From positions 889-64,888 of the forward strand of contig DATAXS010000004.1 of assembly GCA_036266715.1 (NCBI GenBank): 64,000 nucleotides of DNA. Direction: 5' to 3'. The stretch's first letter is position 1, and every line of letters begins with the position of its first letter. A program made the position numbers and the translations under genes. The stretch comes from Minisyncoccota bacterium (GTDB lineage: Bacteria; Patescibacteriota; Minisyncoccia; UBA6257; 2-01-FULL-56-20). Of this stretch, positions 1,352-54,130 are shown piece by piece. The notes beneath the pieces are model-generated. The model made no database searches. It saw only the letters and a list, made by a program, of their open reading frames with translations, and was not told the DNA's origin.

Positions 1352-3520
1352 ATGGACCGCGTGCCGGAACTCCGCCATTTTTACTTTGAGCGCCGGGTAG
1401 GCTTTAAGCGACGGGTCGCTCTTCACCACCGTGACGGCGGCTTCGCGGCTCGCCTTTACGAGTTCGGGGTCCTGGAGCGCGGACATGGCGATGTCGGGGA
1501 GCCCGGTCTGCACTTCGCCGAAGAATTGCCCCGGTCCACGGAGGGCGAGGTCTTTTTCCGCGAGTTCAAATCCGTTGGTTGCTTCCATAAGCGCCTTGAG
1601 CCGCGCGTTCGCGGCCTTGGCATCCGAGTCCGCCATCAAGAAGCAATAGGACTGGTTCTCGCCGCGGCCCACGCGGCCGCGGAACTGGTAGAGCTGCGCC
1701 AACCCGAAGCGTTCCGCGCCCTCTATCATCATGACGGTGGCGTTCGGCACGTCCACGCCCACTTCCACGACGGAGGTGGTCACTAAAATATCGAACTCGC
1801 GGTCCTTAAAGCGGCGCATGGTGTCTTCCTTTTCTTTTGGCTTCATCTGGCCGTGGAGCATGGCGAGGCGGAGGTCGGGGAAAATTTTGGTCCGCAGCTT
1901 TTCGTATTCTTCTTTTACGGAGCGGAGCTCGAGCTTCTGCGCGGTTTCTTCCGCGGATGGCTCAATGCGCGGGCAGATCACAAAAACTTGCCGCCCGGCA
2001 CGCACTTCTTTTTTTACGAAGTCGTACGTGAGCTGCCGTTCTATCGGCATTACGATCTTGGTGTTCACGGGTTTGCGTCCGCCGGGAAGTTCCGTGATGA
2101 GCGAAAGGTCCAGGTCGCCGAACACGGTGAGCATGAGCGTGCGGGGGATGGGCGTGGCGGACATGCTGAGGAAGTGGGGGACAAAGCTTTTGTGGTTCGT
2201 GCCGCCATTTGCGCCATTTTTTTTGCTGCCCAGCGCCGCGCGCTGGCGGACGCCGAACCGGTGCTGTTCGTCAATGATGACGAGGCCGAGGTTTTTGAAC
2301 GAGACCGCTTTTTCAATAAGTGCGTGCGTGCCGAACACGATGGCTACCTCGCCGTTTTCCACTTTCTTTGCCATCGCGGCGCGCGACACGTCCGCCGCCA
2401 TATCGTTTTCGTAGAAGACGACGGCGCTCGTGCCGGTGAGGAGCCCGATGGCGGGTTGCGCGCCGGTGCCCGCAGCGCCTGCGCCGCGCGACATGCGCGC
2501 AAGCAGCCCTTTCATGGTTTCAAAATGCTGGCGCGCTAGGATCTCCGTGGGCGCCATGAAGGCCGTTTGGACGCCGTTCGCGGCCGCGGAAATTGCGGCG
2601 ATCGCGGCGACCACCGTTTTGCCGGAACCCACGTCGCCCTGGAGCAGGCGGTTCATGGGCGAGGGCTTTTCAATATCTTTAATAATCTCCCAGAGCGATT
2701 TTTTTTGCGAAGGAGTGAGTTCAAAGGGGAGCTCCGCGAGAATTGCCTTCACGTGTTCAATGTCCGTTTTTACGACCGGCGCTTTTTCCTGCGCAAGCTT
2801 TAATTTTTGTTGCAGGTTTACGAGCTGAAGAAGGAAAAGGTCCTCAAACGAAAATCGCCGCGTGGCAGCAGACGCTTCTTCCAGTGTTTGGGGAAAGTGG
2901 ACCGCCTGGAGCGCGTGGTTCGCGTCCGGAAAGCCGAGTGCCGCGAGCGTTTCCTGCGGAATCCATTCTTTAAAGGTCGGCACGCGCTTCAGGACGGATT
3001 GCATGATGAAGCGGATGCCGCGCGAGGTGAGCCCGCGGGTTTCCGGGTAGATGGGCACAAGCCGCGCGGTGTGCTTGGTTTCGTCAAATTGTTCGGGCGT
3101 GCCCCTGAGCGCTTCGTACGCCGGGTGGCTCAGGTACATTTCGCTTTCGTCGGAGAGGGATACCTTTCCGGAAAAGTTCGCGAGGCGCCCCACCTTTAAA
3201 ATGTTCGCCACGTAGGGTTGGTTGAACCAAATGGCGCGGATGGTGCCGCTGTCGTCCGCGATGGTTGCTTCCACGATGGACATTTGCCTGCGGAAGCTGC
3301 GCCCGAGGTGTACTTCTTCCACCACGCCTTGGATGGTGGCCTGCTGGCCCGGTTCCAGTTCGGCAACGGAATATACTTTTGAAAAATCTTCGTAGCGCGC
3401 GGGGAAATGGAAGAGCAGATCGCGCACCGTGTGGATGCCCAAATTTTCAAGACGGCGCAGAAACGCGGAGCGCGCGCCCAAGACCTCGTACAGCGGTGTG
3501 TCTAACGCCACTTGGGCCAT
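1343..3520 (-). CDS. recG: ATP-dependent DNA helicase RecG
   Basis: N-terminal wedge/OB region, DEQH helicase motifs (GSGKT, DEQHRFG) and C-terminal helicase domain. I prefer the start at MAQVALD (3520) over the track start at 3619. Confidence 0.9.
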   Translation of the reverse strand: MAQVALDTPLYEVLGARSAFLRRLENLGIHTVRDLLFHFPARYEDFSKVYSVAELEPGQQATIQGVVEEVHLGRSFRRQMSIVEATIADDSGTIRAIWFNQPYVANILKVGRLANFSGKVSLSDESEMYLSHPAYEALRGTPEQFDETKHTARLVPIYPETRGLTSRGIRFIMQSVLKRVPTFKEWIPQETLAALGFPDANHALQAVHFPQTLEEASAATRRFSFEDLFLLQLVNLQQKLKLAQEKAPVVKTDIEHVKAILAELPFELTPSQKKSLWEIIKDIEKPSPMNRLLQGDVGSGKTVVAAIAAISAAANGVQTAFMAPTEILARQHFETMKGLLARMSRGAGAAGTGAQPAIGLLTGTSAVVFYENDMAADVSRAAMAKKVENGEVAIVFGTHALIEKAVSFKNLGLVIIDEQHRFGVRQRAALGSKKNGANGGTNHKSFVPHFLSMSATPIPRTLMLTVFGDLDLSLITELPGGRKPVNTKIVMPIERQLTYDFVKKEVRAGRQVFVICPRIEPSAEETAQKLELRSVKEEYEKLRTKIFPDLRLAMLHGQMKPKEKEDTMRRFKDREFDILVTTSVVEVGVDVPNATVMMIEGAERFGLAQLYQFRGRVGRGENQSYCFLMADSDAKAANARLKALMEATNGFELAEKDLALRGPGQFFGEVQTGLPDIAMSALQDPELVKASREAAVTVVKSDPSLKAYPALKVKMAEFRHAVHLE

Positions 3521-3576: not shown

Positions 3577-3650
3577 CGCAAGAAGGCAGAGCACTATTGG
3601 GGGCAGAGTACGGAGCCACACTGCCCCCAATAGTGCTCTGCCTTCTTGCG
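3577..3650. repeat. Perfect palindrome H1: 30-bp stem (cgcaagaaggcagagcactattgggggcag) with 14-nt loop AGTACGGAGCCACA. It lies immediately after the stop of the 3658-4401 gene and is followed on the minus strand by a T-tract
   Basis: Arms at 3577-3606 and 3621-3650 are exact reverse complements. The loop contains GGAGCC. Confidence 0.9.
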
Positions 3651-3657
3651 TAGGCTG

Positions 3658-4401
3658 CTATTCTTCTTTTGTGCTGCGTACTTTTGCCGCGAGGAATGTG
3701 GCTATTTTATCGTCGCGATCGATATAGATAAGGATGCGGCGCAAGAATTCCCTGAGGCCCTTTTGAAGCGTTTCTTGCGGGGCGTTTTTTAAGGACGCCG
3801 GCCATTCAAAATGAGAAACCAATTTTTCGTAGTGCGGTGAGCGTTCTTTTAATAATTCCTCCGCCGAAACAGAGTCGGCAAGTTCAATCTCCAATCCATG
3901 CTTTTTAAGGATGTTCTCAAAAAGCTGGCGCGCCCTCGGAAGATGATATTCGTTGGTTTCCAAAAGAATTTTTTTGATATCTTCCTGGTCCAGCAGGGCA
4001 AGCACATTCTCAATGCCTTCGGAAGTATTTACGGATGTCCCTTCCGTGAGGATGGCATTTTCAGGAATACCATGGGTGAGCAGGTAGTGTTTCATTACCT
4101 CTGCGATGCTCGTATCCGTAGGGAGATCTTTTTGATGGCCGCTCCCGCTTATGATTATCTTTTTTACTTTGCCCTTTTCAAAAAGTTCCAACGCGCCGAT
4201 GGCCCTCATTTTTGATTCAAGCGACGGGACTGCGTTTCCCTCCTTCACCTCAAACCATTCCCCGAAAACCACGACCGCGTCCGCGTCGGGAATGGTTTCG
4301 AGTGCCTCCTCCGTTTCCCGACCGTTTTCCATTTGTTCGGGATCGTGTGGTATTGGCCCTTGTTCAAACTTTCTCGGAGGCATAGCGATATTATATACCA
4401 A
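3658..4401 (-). CDS. DUF218 / YdcF-ElyC-SanA family protein
   Basis: The GSGHQ-containing central region resembles the DUF218 fold. Start is MVYNIAMPPRK at 4401. Confidence 0.55.
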   Translation of the reverse strand: MVYNIAMPPRKFEQGPIPHDPEQMENGRETEEALETIPDADAVVVFGEWFEVKEGNAVPSLESKMRAIGALELFEKGKVKKIIISGSGHQKDLPTDTSIAEVMKHYLLTHGIPENAILTEGTSVNTSEGIENVLALLDQEDIKKILLETNEYHLPRARQLFENILKKHGLEIELADSVSAEELLKERSPHYEKLVSHFEWPASLKNAPQETLQKGLREFLRRILIYIDRDDKIATFLAAKVRSTKEE

Positions 4402-4410
4402 TTTCCTGCG

Positions 4411-4687
4411 GGTGTGCCCTCGCGAGGAATTTCACTGCTCGGCCGCGCAACGCGGCCTGCGCGTGCGGCACCCACGGTGCCGCACTGTCGCCGTAAGAAC
4501 GGCGACACTCCTCCACGGGGAAACTGCGTTTCCCCGACCCCCTTCCTTGTTCAATTCCTCCCCAAAAAACACAAGCATCTTCCTCTGCATTCCAAAGGCG
4601 TCTCGGAGGCACGAAGGTGCCGAGAGAGAGCGGCCATGCCAGCAGGCATGGACCGCGTCCTTTGGAATGCAGAGGAAGATGCTTGTG
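4411..4687 (-). mobile_element. Element A, about 275 bp, inserted at the tRNA-Arg 3' end. It consists of a 29-bp perfect hairpin (4570-4598 / 4659-4687) with a 60-nt structured loop, a conserved core (4508-4560), three small hairpins (4441-4497) and a direct repeat of the tRNA 3' end (4411-4435)
   Basis: The order, when read in the tRNA sense, matches the element at 14447-14726. Core identity spans more than 40 nt and includes GGGGAAACNNNGTTTCCCC. The terminal sequence AATTCCTCGCGAGGGCA duplicates the tRNA-Arg T-loop/acceptor 3' end. Confidence 0.7.
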
Positions 4688-4757
4688 CCCTCGCGAGGAA
4701 TTGAACCTCGATCGACTCGTTAGGAGTGAGCCGTTCTATCCGTTGAACTACGAGGGC
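4686..4757 (-). tRNA. tRNA-Arg (anticodon CCT)
   Basis: Manual fold of the minus strand: acceptor GCCCTCG/CGAGGGC, D-arm GTTC..GAAC, anticodon loop CTCCTAA, T-arm CGAGG-TTCAATT-CCTCG, discriminator A. No CCA is encoded. Confidence 0.8.
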
Positions 4758-18385: not shown

Positions 18386-18538
18386 GTTTATAAAGGGCTC
18401 CCGCGCGCTCGCGCACCGGTTCTTTAAGCGTTTTTTCATCTAAATTTAATTGTGTTTTAATGACCATACTTTATACTGAGTATGGAGTCGGCTAGAGAGC
18501 ACTCATTCAATAACAAAAAGAATTGGAGGTCACCATAG

Positions 18539-18623
18539 CCGCTCCGCTCAGTCCTTTTACTCTCCCGCACCTGCACCACGCGCGGTTTCGTAGAAAAGAG
18601 GAGGCCTGAGCGGAGCGGTTTTT
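18539..18623 (+). ncRNA. Structured element whose 13-bp terminal stem (ccgctccgctcag/ctgagcggagcgg) encloses a 54-nt interior and is followed by T5; candidate sRNA 3' domain or terminator
   Basis: Perfect 13-bp stem directly followed by TTTTT, 60 nt upstream of murB. Confidence 0.35.
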
Positions 18624-18680
18624 GTGTGCCCATGAGCTCCTGCGGTGTTTCCAAGATTACAACGATAAAATCTATTTACC

Positions 18681-47785: not shown

Positions 47786-48364
47786 ATGGATACGACTATA
47801 AAAACCGATGCAGAATTGGTGCGTGCGGTCCTCCGGGGCGACAAGAACGCATTCCCGGTGCTTTTGGAGCGCCACATGGACTCGGTGTACAAGTTCGCGT
47901 TCCGGTATGTGCGGAATGGAGAGGATGCCGATGACGTAACGCAGGAAGCATTCATCCGCGTGTGGAAAAATCTCAAGAAATTTGATACCTCCAAGAACTT
48001 CAAGACCTGGCTTTTTACGATAGCCAAGAACGTGGCGCTTGATATCCTCAAAAAGAAAAAGCCGCTCAACTTTTCGCAGATCGCGGAGGAAGACGAGCAG
48101 CTGGATGCGGTCTTTGCGTCACATTTGGAAAGTCCGGAATTGCCGGATTCGCTTTACGAACGCAAGCTCGTAAAAGCAGGCCTCGGCGCCGCGCTCACCA
48201 CGCTCCCGCAGAATTACCAAACAGTGCTCACTATGCGCTACGAAGGAAATCTCAAATTCCGTGAGATCGCGGAAACGCTCCATGAGCCGATTGATACCGT
48301 GAAGAGCAAACATCGCCGCGGGCTTATGATGCTGAGGAAGGTCGTGGGGAAAGACAAGGCCTAG
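47786..48364 (+). CDS. ECF-type RNA polymerase sigma factor
   Basis: Region 2 (DVTQEAFIRVWKN) and region 4 helix-turn-helix (YREIAETL). Upstream is a near-leaderless promoter TTTGAG-N17-TATAAT with a TGn extension. Confidence 0.8.
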   Translation: MDTTIKTDAELVRAVLRGDKNAFPVLLERHMDSVYKFAFRYVRNGEDADDVTQEAFIRVWKNLKKFDTSKNFKTWLFTIAKNVALDILKKKKPLNFSQIAEEDEQLDAVFASHLESPELPDSLYERKLVKAGLGAALTTLPQNYQTVLTMRYEGNLKFREIAETLHEPIDTVKSKHRRGLMMLRKVVGKDKA

Positions 48365-48435
48365 CAAAAAGAGAGGGGTTTTCCAGACAGAGGGCTCCCT
48401 TTACTGTCTGGAAAACCCCTCTCTTTTTGCTAGGC
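48359..48435. repeat. Perfect palindrome H4: 32-bp stem (ggcctagcaaaaagagaggggttttccagacag) with 13-nt loop AGGGCTCCCTTTA, overlapping the stop codon of the sigma factor gene
   Basis: Arms at 48359-48390 and 48404-48435 are exact reverse complements. Confidence 0.9.
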
Positions 48436-48521
48436 ATACATTTTCCCCACGATCCTTTTGGAGTGTTAGGAGCGGGAGGCGGGAAGGCACCCAAATAGGG
48501 CCAATTTTCGTATTAAGAGCG

Positions 48522-52242: not shown

Positions 52243-53487
52243 ATGAAAACCGAAGATCTTTTTGAAGAAACATACAGTGCGGTGACCGTGAACAAAGTGC
52301 GGTCGGGTTTAACGATGCTTGGCATCGTGATAGGCATTGCGTCCGTGATCGCGCTCCAGGCAGTGGGGCAGGGCGCGCAAAGCTCCATTCAATCCAGCAT
52401 CCAGTCGCTCGGTGCGAATTTGATTATGGTCACGCCGGGCGCACAGAAGACGATCGGTACCACGGTGAGCACCGGGTTGGGGAGCGCGGAGACCCTCACG
52501 GCAGACGACGCAACCGCCATCTCCCAGCTTCCCGACGTCACCGCCGTGGCGCCCGAGGTAAGCGGCCGCTACCAGGTGGTCTATAAAGGACAGAACACCA
52601 ACGTGAGCGTGATGGGGACGACCTCCGCATATCCCACGGTGCGAAACGTGCAGGTCGCCGATGGAAGCTTTGTGACCGATACCGACAACACCGAATCGAA
52701 TCTCGTGGCCGTGATCGGTCCCACCGTGCTCCAAACGCTTTTTGCGCCGAGCGCGAACGCAAGCGCAACGCCCGACATGGCGATAGGGCAGAATATCCTT
52801 ATTAAAGGAAATGTGTTTACGGTGGTTGGCGTCACGGTCTCAAAAGGCGGTAGCGGTTTTAACAATCAGGACGACATGATCTACGTGCCACTCACGACCG
52901 CCCAGCACTACTTGATCGGCAGTACTGCGTATGTGACGGAGGTGGACGTGGAGGCATCGAGCCAGAACGACATGACGACGGTCCAGAACGACATCACGTC
53001 GCTCTTGCTCCAACGGCACAATATTTCCGATCCCACGCAGGCGGACTTTACGGTATTGAACCAGCAGGATATTGTCTCCGCCGCCTCAAGCGTCACGGGT
53101 ACCTTCACCACGCTGCTTGCCGCAATTGCAGGCATCTCGCTCGTCGTGGGCGGCATCGGCATTATGAACATGATGCTTACGACGGTCACCGAGCGTACGC
53201 GTGAAATCGGTTTGCGCAAAGCCATCGGTGCAAAAAAGAACGACATCACGATGCAGTTTCTTGCCGAGGCCGTCACGCTCACGTTTGGCGGTGGGATAAT
53301 TGGGATCGTGCTCGGGTGGCTCGCGGCATTGCTCATATCCACGCTCACGGGAACGGCAACGAGCGTGTCGCTCAGTTCCATTATTCTTGCGTTCTGCGTG
53401 TCCGCGGGCATCGGGATCGTGTTCGGCTATTATCCCGCCCGCCGCGCTGCGAGCCTTTCACCAATAGAAGCATTGAGATATGAATAA
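52243..53487 (+). CDS. ABC transporter permease (MacB-like; MacB_PCD plus FtsX domains)
   Basis: N-terminal TM helix, periplasmic domain and C-terminal three-TM FtsX module. Confidence 0.85.
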   Translation: MKTEDLFEETYSAVTVNKVRSGLTMLGIVIGIASVIALQAVGQGAQSSIQSSIQSLGANLIMVTPGAQKTIGTTVSTGLGSAETLTADDATAISQLPDVTAVAPEVSGRYQVVYKGQNTNVSVMGTTSAYPTVRNVQVADGSFVTDTDNTESNLVAVIGPTVLQTLFAPSANASATPDMAIGQNILIKGNVFTVVGVTVSKGGSGFNNQDDMIYVPLTTAQHYLIGSTAYVTEVDVEASSQNDMTTVQNDITSLLLQRHNISDPTQADFTVLNQQDIVSAASSVTGTFTTLLAAIAGISLVVGGIGIMNMMLTTVTERTREIGLRKAIGAKKNDITMQFLAEAVTLTFGGGIIGIVLGWLAALLISTLTGTATSVSLSSIILAFCVSAGIGIVFGYYPARRAASLSPIEALRYE

Positions 53488-53519: not shown

Positions 53520-53595
53520 TGGATGGAACGCTCCGGTGCTTTTCCGGCAGTGTGGCTCTGAACTCTGCCGGAAAAGCACCGGAGCGTTCCATCCA
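53520..53595. repeat. Perfect palindrome H5: 31-bp stem (tggatggaacgctccggtgcttttccggcag) with 14-nt loop TGTGGCTCTGAACT. The reverse complement of the loop matches the H1 loop at 12/14 positions
   Basis: Arms at 53520-53550 and 53565-53595 are exact reverse complements. Confidence 0.9.
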
Positions 53596-53629: not shown

Positions 53630-54130
53630 ATGAAAAAATACAAAGTGCACATCATCTGGGTCATCGTGGCGGTCGTCGCGCTCGCGGGAGGTTTCTTCTG
53701 GGGCAAGTCGATGGCGCCGGCCGCTACCGGGTTCCCGGGCGGGGGATCGTTTGCGGGAGCATCGGGAACAAGGACGTTCGCGCGTGGCGGTGCCGCCGCG
53801 GGTGCGGGAGGCGGGCTCGTGACGGGCCAGGTCCTCTCCATGAGCGGGGACAGCATGACGGTCCAGCTTACAAACGGCAACTCGCAGGTGGTATTCTATT
53901 CAAGTTCCACGTCGGTCATAAAGCCGGAGCCCGCGCCTGTAAGCGCGCTTACGCCGGGCACATCGGTCATGATCGTGGGTACCACGAATTCTGACGGCAG
54001 CTTGACCGCACAGTCCATCCAGGTCCGCACAGCGAGCAGCACGGGTGGTTTTGGCGGCGGTGCGGGAGGCGGGGGCGGAACGGGCTCGGGCTCGGGCACG
54101 GGTGCAAGTGCCAATACCAGCGGGCAATAA
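53630..54130 (+). CDS. Hypothetical secreted Gly-rich protein with an N-terminal TM/signal anchor
   Basis: Open frame with a terminator downstream. Confidence 0.5.
   Translation: MKKYKVHIIWVIVAVVALAGGFFWGKSMAPAATGFPGGGSFAGASGTRTFARGGAAAGAGGGLVTGQVLSMSGDSMTVQLTNGNSQVVFYSSSTSVIKPEPAPVSALTPGTSVMIVGTTNSDGSLTAQSIQVRTASSTGGFGGGAGGGGGTGSGSGTGASANTSGQ

Follow-up and report, generated by a model that had tools for sequence, protein, structure and literature searches.

The stretch of DNA that we analysed (64,000 nucleotides from a Minisyncoccota bacterium, referred to here as the window) is an ordinary segment of a bacterial chromosome, with 55% GC and with recG, secA, mraZ, ribosomal protein genes, and tRNA genes. 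A preliminary description of this sequence pointed out three perfect palindromes, H1, H4, and H5, with stems of 30, 32, and 31 bp. A census of exact stems agrees with that description on both the lengths and the positions. The census found five perfect stems of at least 28 bp in the window; when the window was shuffled 30 times with its dinucleotides preserved, perfect stems reached 14 bp at most. As RNA, H1, H4, and H5 have predicted folding energies of -70.9, -84.4, and -69.2 kcal/mol, with z-scores of -13.7 to -15.7.

H1 (3577..3650) has perfect arms of 30 bp (3577-3606 and 3621-3650) around a centre of 14 nt (3607-3620, AGTACGGAGCCACA). It is flanked by two genes on the minus strand: on one side, H1 begins 7 nt past the stop (at 3658) of a DUF218 gene (3658-4401), and on the other side lies the start of recG, at 3520. 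(This start agrees with an identical NCBI protein, P0121.) H4 (48342..48452) consists of a core palindrome (48359-48435) with 32-bp perfect arms around the centre AGGGCTCCCTTTA (48391-48403) and an outer extension of 11 bp, in which 48342-48352 are paired with 48442-48452 across a bubble of 6x6 nt. The stop codon of the preceding sigma factor gene had been placed within the stem of H4, and this is correct: the last codons of an ECF sigma factor gene (47786-48364) and its TAG stop (48362-48364) are inside the left arm. H5 (53520..53595) has perfect arms of 31 bp (53520-53550 and 53565-53595) around the centre TGTGGCTCTGAACT (53551-53564), and lies between a MacB-type permease gene (stop at 53487) and a DUF5666 gene (start at 53630). 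We also identified a decayed fourth member of the family, I4 (9408..9486), between rplL and a tRNA-Val gene (9489-9561). I4 has arms of 33 nt, with 4 positions that are not Watson-Crick pairs, and the centre TAAGGGAAGGCCT. No strand is assigned to these four hairpins, nor to the two long-centre palindromes that are described below.

The centres of these hairpins are related to each other. When reverse-complemented, the H5 loop (AGTTCAGAGCCACA) is the same as the H1 loop at 12 of 14 positions (that is, the two are in opposite orientations), and the H4 loop contains GGCTCC, as had been reported. For one pair of loops in one orientation, the chance of a 12/14 match is about 3e-6. In addition, the I4 centre and the reverse-complemented H4 centre agree at 10 of 13 positions (P = 1.3e-4 for at least 10 of 13). 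All four of these short-centre copies end in CAG on the left of the centre and in CTG on the right, and the stems of H1, H4, and H5 have a run of T at 8-13 nt from the loop.

We used homologues of the sigma factor, RecG, and SecA to obtain syntenic loci from relatives (66-87% protein identity), and found six or seven further copies in related contigs of Paceibacteria. There are three copies in locus L027, two in L031, and one clear copy in L022, along with one long perfect hairpin that has a different centre. The centres in the relatives are TACTCGGAAGGG (twice), TACTCAGAAGGG (twice), and TACTAAGAAGGG (twice), each in otherwise different perfect hairpins, so the preliminary description was right that this is a real family with a conserved centre. 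The inner stems in the relatives have the form ..GGGTTTGRnnGAG before the centre and CTC..CAAACCC.. after it. The window's centres can be aligned to those of the relatives (GAGTAC-GGAG.., TAAAGGGAG.., and TAAGGGAAGG..). Overall, the centre is asymmetric and 12-14 nt long, is similar to TACTCGGAAGGG in the relatives, and has diverged to AGTWCRGAGCCACA and TAAAGGGAGCCCT in the window.

We aligned eleven members, which come from four genomes, and all of them have the centre and the inner stem in common. The loop-proximal stem has, family-wide, a run of T and then (C/G)AG beside the loop; the outer stem varies from copy to copy. The stems of H1, H4, and H5 had been described as completely different from each other. 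This is true of their outer halves, but the loop-proximal stem is common, and the stem of H4 (CAAAAAGAGAGGGGTTTTCCAGACAG) is recognisably homologous to stems from L027 and L022. The conserved unit is a core of ~40 nt, and the stems are unrelated in the outer half only. Loci that are unrelated, and that belong to different genomes, have identical 12-nt centres and homologous inner stems; with the 12/14 match between loops, this implies that the ~40-nt core is of common descent.

Copies occur at a density of 4 per 64 kb in the window and of 2-3 per ~20 kb in L022, L027, and L031; any number of copies per genome is extrapolated from less than 300 kb of sequence. We found no copies in the 12-22 kb of the relatives L024, L025/L021, L028, and L029, so the load of hairpins varies between lineages.

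The window also contains two palindromes of a sister class, which have long centres and adjoin tRNA genes. B1 (4570..4687) has 29-bp perfect arms and a structured centre of 60 nt (ACGCGG...CCTCCGAGACG in the sense of the tRNA). It begins at the 3' end of a tRNA-Arg(cct) gene (4685-4757, minus strand), and TTTTTT is next in the sense of the tRNA. B2 (14447..14591) has 28-bp perfect arms and an 89-nt centre that is homologous to the centre of B1, and it overlaps a tRNA-Glu(ctc) gene (14376-14453), whose last 7 nt (GGTACCA) are the start of the left arm.

B1 and B2 are each followed by a conserved and highly structured module of ~125-150 nt. Of the 39 pairs that RNAalifold predicts for this module, 11 show compensatory changes. 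Its closing helix combines an inverted copy of the T-arm of the neighbouring tRNA with a direct copy of that tRNA's T-loop-to-acceptor end. With a covariance model, we found copies of the module at a tRNA-Ala in L026, at a tRNA-Glu in L027, weakly at a tRNA-Ala in L027, and away from any tRNA in L028. The orthologous tRNA-Glu(ctc) in L028 has neither a B2-like element nor the structured module. A hairpin of the short-centre (H1-type) class lies between the tRNA and the module in L027 and L031, which implies that the two classes of hairpin are interchangeable at this position. The module follows the principle seen in the hairpins: a conserved core with a flanking helix that is built from local sequence.

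We searched more broadly for related sequences. The pattern of the H1 and H5 centres (CAGAGTNCNGAGCCACACTG) had 7 matches in species-representative genomes and 11 in metagenome contigs, none of which were flanked by inverted repeats, so we consider these to be chance matches; the lineage is evidently not represented in those collections, and no member of the family turned up beyond this clade. In viral contigs, there were zero matches to the centre from the relatives or to two conserved stretches of the tRNA-linked module. In Rfam, only tRNAs passed the gathering score and no family matched the hairpins; a permissive search returned, below the threshold, matches to generic miRNA-precursor hairpins only. 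A search of the literature turned up no description of such elements in CPR bacteria.

Comparison with relatives indicates how the hairpins come and go. The closest sampled relatives for the sites of H1, H4, and H5 have ~79-87% protein identity and align at the nucleotide level only at the gene-end anchors; with that limit, the DUF218-recG spacer (with H1) is 137 nt in the window versus 59 nt in L025, with the same anchors (TAGCAG ... ATGGTATACTACGGGCAC), the spacer between the sigma factor gene and the next gene (with H4) is 157 nt versus 39-44 nt in L022 and L024, and the MacB-DUF5666 spacer (with H5) is 142 nt versus 42 nt in L024. By eye, the 34 nt that follow H5 can be aligned to the 3' part of the L024 spacer, and neither arm of H5 is present there. 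Similarly, L027 has a copy after recG, and L026 has a 19-nt spacer at that place.

A finer comparison is provided by five loci from five metagenomes (L031-L035), which encode the same RecG and are 99.6-99.99% identical. At one site, between the 3' end of a tRNA-Lys gene and the stop of a convergent EamA-type gene, these strains have a 70-bp copy with a 29-bp perfect stem. The copy is perfect in three of the five strains; in L033, it has one G>T change, in a single arm; and in L034 it is missing, due to a 74-nt indel that leaves ~6-8 nt from the end of the tRNA to the stop codon. The junction in L034 is not clean: no target motif can be defined, and a deletion and an empty site both fit. Thus, whole hairpin units of ~70-77 bp are gained or lost in very short spacers after genes and tRNAs. 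This turnover of whole units occurs on very short time scales and leaves the neighbours unaffected.

The preliminary description had named, among the outcomes that would refute it, an absence of the palindromes from close relatives that has no consequence for the neighbouring genes; for presence and absence, this is what we see. Such a pattern suggests that the element is mobile and dispensable, and not that it is an essential signal. The mismatches in I4 are of random type, and such decay is expected of a dispensable element. Neither the window nor the ~250 kb of related loci that we examined contains a gene for a transposase, an integrase, or an HUH-type enzyme. We also saw no target-site duplication, and no direct repeat flanks H1, H4, H5, or the L031a copy. 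Because we found neither a mobilising gene nor a target-site duplication, we infer mobility only from presence and absence.

The pairing of the arms is almost entirely Watson-Crick. Helices that are kept by selection for RNA folding alone normally tolerate G-U pairs. Across 11 copies, we counted 331 Watson-Crick pairs in the stems, 6 mismatches, and just 3 G-T pairs (3 of 340). The near-absence of G-T pairs implies that a process acts at the level of DNA or that both strands need to fold, and a rule at the DNA level accounts for it better than does selection for pairing in RNA.

Furthermore, in several copies, the outer edges of the arms copy host sequence. The outer right arm of H4 (TTTCCCCACGA, 48442-48452) is an exact inverted copy (11/11 bp) of the outer left arm (TCGTGGGGAAA), and the outer left arm is homologous to the coding sequence of the sigma factor in L022 and L024. 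Since the left arm is conserved coding sequence, it is the right arm that is the copy. The 3' ends of tRNAs are also drawn in, with 6-7 nt paired in both L027a and B2. The stem of L027a starts with the CCACCA of a tRNA-Ala (CCACCAGG and CCTGGTGG are paired there), and in the window, the arms of B2 pair GGTACCA with TGGTACC at the tRNA-Glu. The copying of the sigma factor sequence into the outer arm of H4 and the pairing of tRNA ends both directly support the suggestion, made in the preliminary description, that a central sequence is preserved as palindromes are generated by a templated snap-back mechanism. That description had also argued from the swallowed stop codon that an arm was copied from local sequence. 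This holds for the outer edge but not for whole arms: the inner arms are not pre-existing sequence, as they are missing from the L024 spacer that is orthologous to the H5 site and from the L034 allele. Indeed, comparing H5 to L024 and L031 to L034 rules out the idea that both arms are pre-existing local sequence. As for paired changes in both arms, the sole variant among the five strains L031-L035 is the single-arm G>T change, so if the arms are corrected against each other, then this is not immediate.

We propose, with moderate confidence, that H1, H4, H5, and I4 represent a palindromic, non-coding insertion element of ~70-77 bp that is specific to its lineage, a clade of the ultra-small Paceibacteria (CPR bacteria). 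This proposed element is similar to MITEs and REPs, and snap-back template switching would perfect its arms and lengthen them. Because the hairpin is absent from empty sites and its outer edge is host-derived, insertion followed by template switching is the simplest account. The core hairpin would insert, and intrastrand (snap-back) template switching during replication would then copy one arm, along with its flank, into the other. This would homogenise the arms and would push the palindrome outward until it met constrained sequence. Snap-back template switching would account for arms that are perfect within a copy and different between copies, and for the swallowed stop codon or tRNA end. It is documented that inverted repeats and hairpins can arise, become homogeneous, and grow through template switching (PMC8794818; PMC13100816; PMC5941160), as in quasipalindrome mutagenesis (PMC7202029).

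Template switching alone does not explain why drift affects the arms and spares the centre; for this, the centre must be under selection or be read by an enzyme. A putative enzyme that recognises the centre is the obvious candidate reason for the centre's conservation, and new sites would be reached via this assumed enzyme, which would be encoded elsewhere in the genome and would read the centre of the hairpin. If transcribed, a copy would form a hairpin of -60 to -85 kcal/mol at the 3' end. Copies whose outer arms are A-rich on the left and U-rich on the right are laid out like a bidirectional intrinsic terminator, so the family is probably tolerated or co-opted as a terminator or as a 3'-end barrier, although H1 and H5 lack the U-tract.

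A doubtful but possible alternative is that the hairpins are functional RNA signals that are selected at 3' ends, as intrinsic (possibly bidirectional) terminators, as barriers to 3' exonucleases, or as sites for RNase III or for a loop-binding protein. Selection would then act on the perfect stems and the conserved loop, with the spread of the hairpins being secondary. All of the copies are just after genes or tRNAs, and several of them are between convergent units. Four copies (H4, L027a, L027c, and L031b) have an A-rich outer left arm, a GC-rich inner hairpin of 14-16 bp, and a U-rich outer right arm, and so they look like bidirectional intrinsic terminators, with complementary A- and U-rich flanks around a GC-rich hairpin and with convergent genes on either side; this putative role is read from their layout. 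A T6 follows B1, and GTTTTATTTG follows L031a. The folding energies are extreme, the B class has a single orientation relative to the upstream gene in 5 of 5 cases, and the pairing of a bidirectional terminator on both strands would, like a DNA-level process, forbid G-U pairs.

Several observations stand against the RNA-signal explanation. Typical intrinsic terminators have stems of 5-14 bp and loops of 3-8 nt with no fixed sequence, whereas the hairpins have stems of ~30 bp and a conserved loop of 12-14 nt, which far exceeds what is needed for termination. A U-tract is required for Rho-independent termination (PMC3993855), and neither H1 nor H5 has one within 2 nt of the stem. H1 had been described as having a T-tract on the minus strand, and a T6 is indeed present there, but it does not adjoin the stem: it starts 11 nt away (CGGTTCTCTATTTTTTG). 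H5 lacks an adjacent U-tract altogether, and a scan with a terminator consensus did not call H1, H4, or H5 as whole hairpins. The orientation of the asymmetric centre relative to the flanking genes is of antisense type in H1, H4, and H5 and of sense type in I4 and in all of the tRNA-linked copies. That the centre occurs in both orientations to transcription argues against a strict reading of the loop at the RNA level. Orthologous genes have no hairpin in relatives and in a 99.6%-identical strain, I4 is decaying, and H4 lies between the sigma factor gene and the next gene, where the spacer in relatives is just 39-44 nt. We therefore rank a selfish palindromic element, which is terminator-like and possibly co-opted, above a dedicated RNA signal.

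The GC skew is positive across the whole window, and centres in both orientations are found on one replichore. This uniform skew, with centres pointing both ways, disfavours a replication strand bias such as that of IS200/IS605-like elements, and also an insertion that is specific to the lagging strand.

We consider it quite unlikely that the family is explained by the centre being a DNA site for a putative enzyme (an HUH/Y1-type nuclease, a recombinase, or a hairpin-binding protein), with the arms serving to extrude a hairpin or cruciform. The elements would then be substrates, much as REPs are for RAYTs or as rolling-circle origins and attC sites are. The centre is kept while the arms vary across genomes that are ~65-80% identical in protein, its orientation is independent of both transcription and replication, the symmetry is strictly at the DNA level, and whole units are gained and lost, all of which would suit such a site. 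On the other hand, no gene for a candidate enzyme was seen in the loci examined (~300 kb), the centres in the window have drifted (AGTACGGAGCCACA versus TACTCGGAAGGG), and the hairpins lack a conserved foot motif such as GTAG/CGTC (in REPs) or GTTRRRY (in attC sites).

It is very improbable that each hairpin was born in place by a template-switch mutation, with no mobile element involved and with the similar centres reflecting a mutational hotspot or convergence. Outer arms demonstrably copy local sequence, and a single template-switch step can yield a long perfect stem (PMC8794818), but neither arm is found in the alignable L024 spacer (compared to H5) or in the L034 allele, and the loop match, the identical 12-nt centres, and the homologous inner stems indicate common descent. 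Finally, an artefact of sequencing or assembly (such as palindromic chimeras among the reads, or contigs wrongly joined at an inverted repeat) is excluded. Although a short-read assembly, L002, breaks exactly inside H4, this independent Logan assembly contains the left arm of H4, and a JGI contig (L001) has 100% identity to the window through both H4 and H5. Moreover, each hairpin is well within a long contig, between flanking sequences that are unique, and family members recur base for base in five metagenomes.

Returning to the insertion element, we find it most like a combination of REP- or MITE-type palindromic repeats with the growth of inverted repeats by template switching, which is unusual but not unprecedented. 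Like REPs and BIMEs, it is a short, non-coding hairpin repeat that is present in multiple copies in spacers after genes, varies in its presence between strains, and is suspected of acting as a terminator or a stabiliser of mRNA. REPs are imperfect palindromes of 20-40 nt with a shared stem and a conserved GTAG/CGTC foot, and are mobilised by RAYTs (PMC3733652, PMC12306157). Here, in contrast, the centre and the inner stem are conserved, the outer stem is variable, and the arms, of 26-33 bp, are essentially perfect. The GTAG/CGTC foot is absent from the short-centre (A-type) hairpins; the centre of the B-type palindromes does start with CGTC in one orientation, but this is inside the palindrome. 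There is no gene for a RAYT (Y1 transposase) in the 64-kb window or in the related loci that we examined.

The element also resembles MITEs in being small (<300 bp), non-coding, non-autonomous, intergenic, and multi-copy, with insertion polymorphism. MITEs (such as Correia/NEMIS of Neisseria) have conserved terminal repeats, which are read by a transposase, and direct target duplications. In contrast, the termini of our hairpins are their least conserved part and are partly host-derived, and we found no target duplication. With hairpins that arise by template switching, the family shares the templating of one arm by the other, perfect Watson-Crick stems, and extension into adjacent sequence. 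An arm that is an exact inverted copy of adjacent sequence is seen at the outer edges only, however, and the published cases concern single loci or rRNA and miRNA stems, which are not mobile, whereas the hairpins described here are a family that is dispersed, has a common core, and is gained and lost in whole units.

Other known systems were considered and rejected. The hairpins share with integron attC sites a conserved structure with variable sequence and a location at the 3' ends of genes. AttC sites have RYYYAAC and GTTRRRY ends and extrahelical bases, and occur in cassette arrays beside an integrase. The ends here are CGCAAG../TGGATGG../GCCTAGC.., the arms are perfectly paired, each copy stands alone, and we saw no gene for an integrase. 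Nor are these the guide arrays of CRISPR or TIGR systems, as the copies are solitary and kilobases apart, and we saw no array and no cas- or tas-like genes. (TIGR systems are reported to occur in this phylum; PMC12045711.) The defining features of retron msd and of tmRNA are absent as well.

A bolder version of the insertion element, which we think is unlikely, is a new type of mobile element whose only heritable part is the conserved centre with ~14 bp of inner stem. A putative loop-specific enzyme would move or nick this core, and snap-back (rolling-hairpin-like) synthesis would rebuild the arms from the host's flanking sequence, so that the element would make its own inverted repeats. The same principle of arm rebuilding may also build the B-class palindromes (with centres of 60-120 nt) and the closing helix of the tRNA-linked module, and may bring the ends of genes inside the element (as for the stop codon of the sigma factor gene in H4).

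CPR bacteria (Patescibacteria) have tiny genomes with little space between genes, and there has been almost no exploration of the non-coding DNA in them. At roughly 1 copy per 5-15 kb in the carriers that we sampled, the hairpin family may make up a sizeable share of their longer spacers. The insertion of a hairpin alters the 3' ends of genes and breaks short-read assemblies. The linked arrangement of tRNA, hairpin, and structured RNA suggests that there is further undescribed non-coding RNA in these bacteria. If the centre is the recognition site of an enzyme, then the family would point to an undescribed system of mobilisation. More broadly, the family may offer a natural series of palindromes that have been inserted, perfected, extended into host sequence, have begun to decay, or have been lost. 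Such a series would make template switching, which is usually inferred from isolated events, testable at the scale of populations.

In the window, two of the long hairpins that follow a tRNA are in turn followed by a module of about 125-150 nt that is both conserved and highly structured (4413-4563 on the minus strand and 14601-14726 on the plus strand). The module recurs in loci from related genomes (L026 8250-8402, L027 15484-15631 and, there without a tRNA, L028 5561-5684, with a weak copy at L027 8400-8527). The helix that closes the module is formed by two copied pieces of the adjacent tRNA: its T-arm, inverted, pairs with its 3' end from the T-loop to the acceptor, copied in direct orientation. 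Because the closing helix is built from the sequence of the neighbouring tRNA, it covaries with tRNA identity (Arg, Glu, or Ala). RNAalifold predicts 39 pairs in the module, 11 of them compensatory, and Rfam contains no match for it. The module could be an undescribed non-coding RNA or a miniature integrative element that targets tRNAs.

L026 also carries, at about 15040-15065, a segment that repeats in part, and inverted, the T-loop-to-acceptor 3' end of tRNA-Glu(ttc), with a match at 20/21 positions; the intact tRNA lies roughly 130 nt upstream. Neither a hairpin nor a structured module accompanies this partial copy, which a similar event may have left behind. Separately, ARAGORN reports two 74-nt tRNAs with Ser anticodons in the window (cga, 14921-14994, and tga, 15957-16030) that lack the long variable arm a tRNA-Ser should have and score low against the Rfam tRNA model (45.9 and 38.6 bits); a gene of the endonuclease/exonuclease/phosphatase family (15004-15762) lies between them.

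The second class of palindromes has perfect arms of 13-29 bp around a conserved centre of 60-113 nt (window 4570-4687 and 14447-14591; L026 8096-8238 and 9171-9257; L031 13262-13410), with the pattern ACGSSG...CTCTCTCGG...CCTCCGAGRYG. In all five cases the palindrome points the same way with respect to the tRNA or gene that precedes it. The 3' end of this centre (GCCTCCGAGACG) is similar to the centre of the short-centre hairpin H1 (GGCTCCGTACT). A third type, with an unrelated 120-nt centre between perfect 29-bp arms, forms the entire spacer between the convergent genes for RecG and a methyltransferase in L031 (12189-12366) and is likewise present in the near-identical strains L032-L035.

In the short-centre hairpins of relatives (for example, L027 12165-12185), the final 3 bp of the stem and the initial 5 nt of the centre form an 8-nt palindrome, GAGTACTC. 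In L022b, L027a, L027c and L031b, the copies that have G-T pairs or mismatches, these are grouped at a distance of 4-6 bp from the loop. The Logan contig L002, from a short-read assembly, breaks off at window position 48388, at the end of the left arm of hairpin H4. It is probable that such palindromes break up CPR assemblies and that MAGs under-represent them.

An imperfect but conserved hairpin in the spacer upstream of murB (window 18531-18626; L028 8489-8567) is unrelated to the palindrome family. Its arms, CCGCTCCGCTCAG and AGCCGCTCCACTCAGA, are about 47-54 nt apart, and in the window the hairpin is followed by GGTTTTTGTG. A leader or a small RNA is a possible identity for it.

In a relative (L029 12683-15708, and L030), an insertion that separates secA from the second ECF sigma factor gene holds a small ORF, a gene with an ORF6N domain and a 457-amino-acid reverse-transcriptase-like gene (a weak match to RVT_1). 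The window has no such insertion between these genes. The ECF sigma factor encoded at 47786-48364 of the window ends in ..VVGKDKA*, while its orthologues in L022 and L024 are longer (ending in ..VVTGEAPDSSFA* and ..VISGDATASGSSFA*). Since its stop codon lies within an arm of H4, insertion of the hairpin may have reshaped the C-terminus of the sigma factor.
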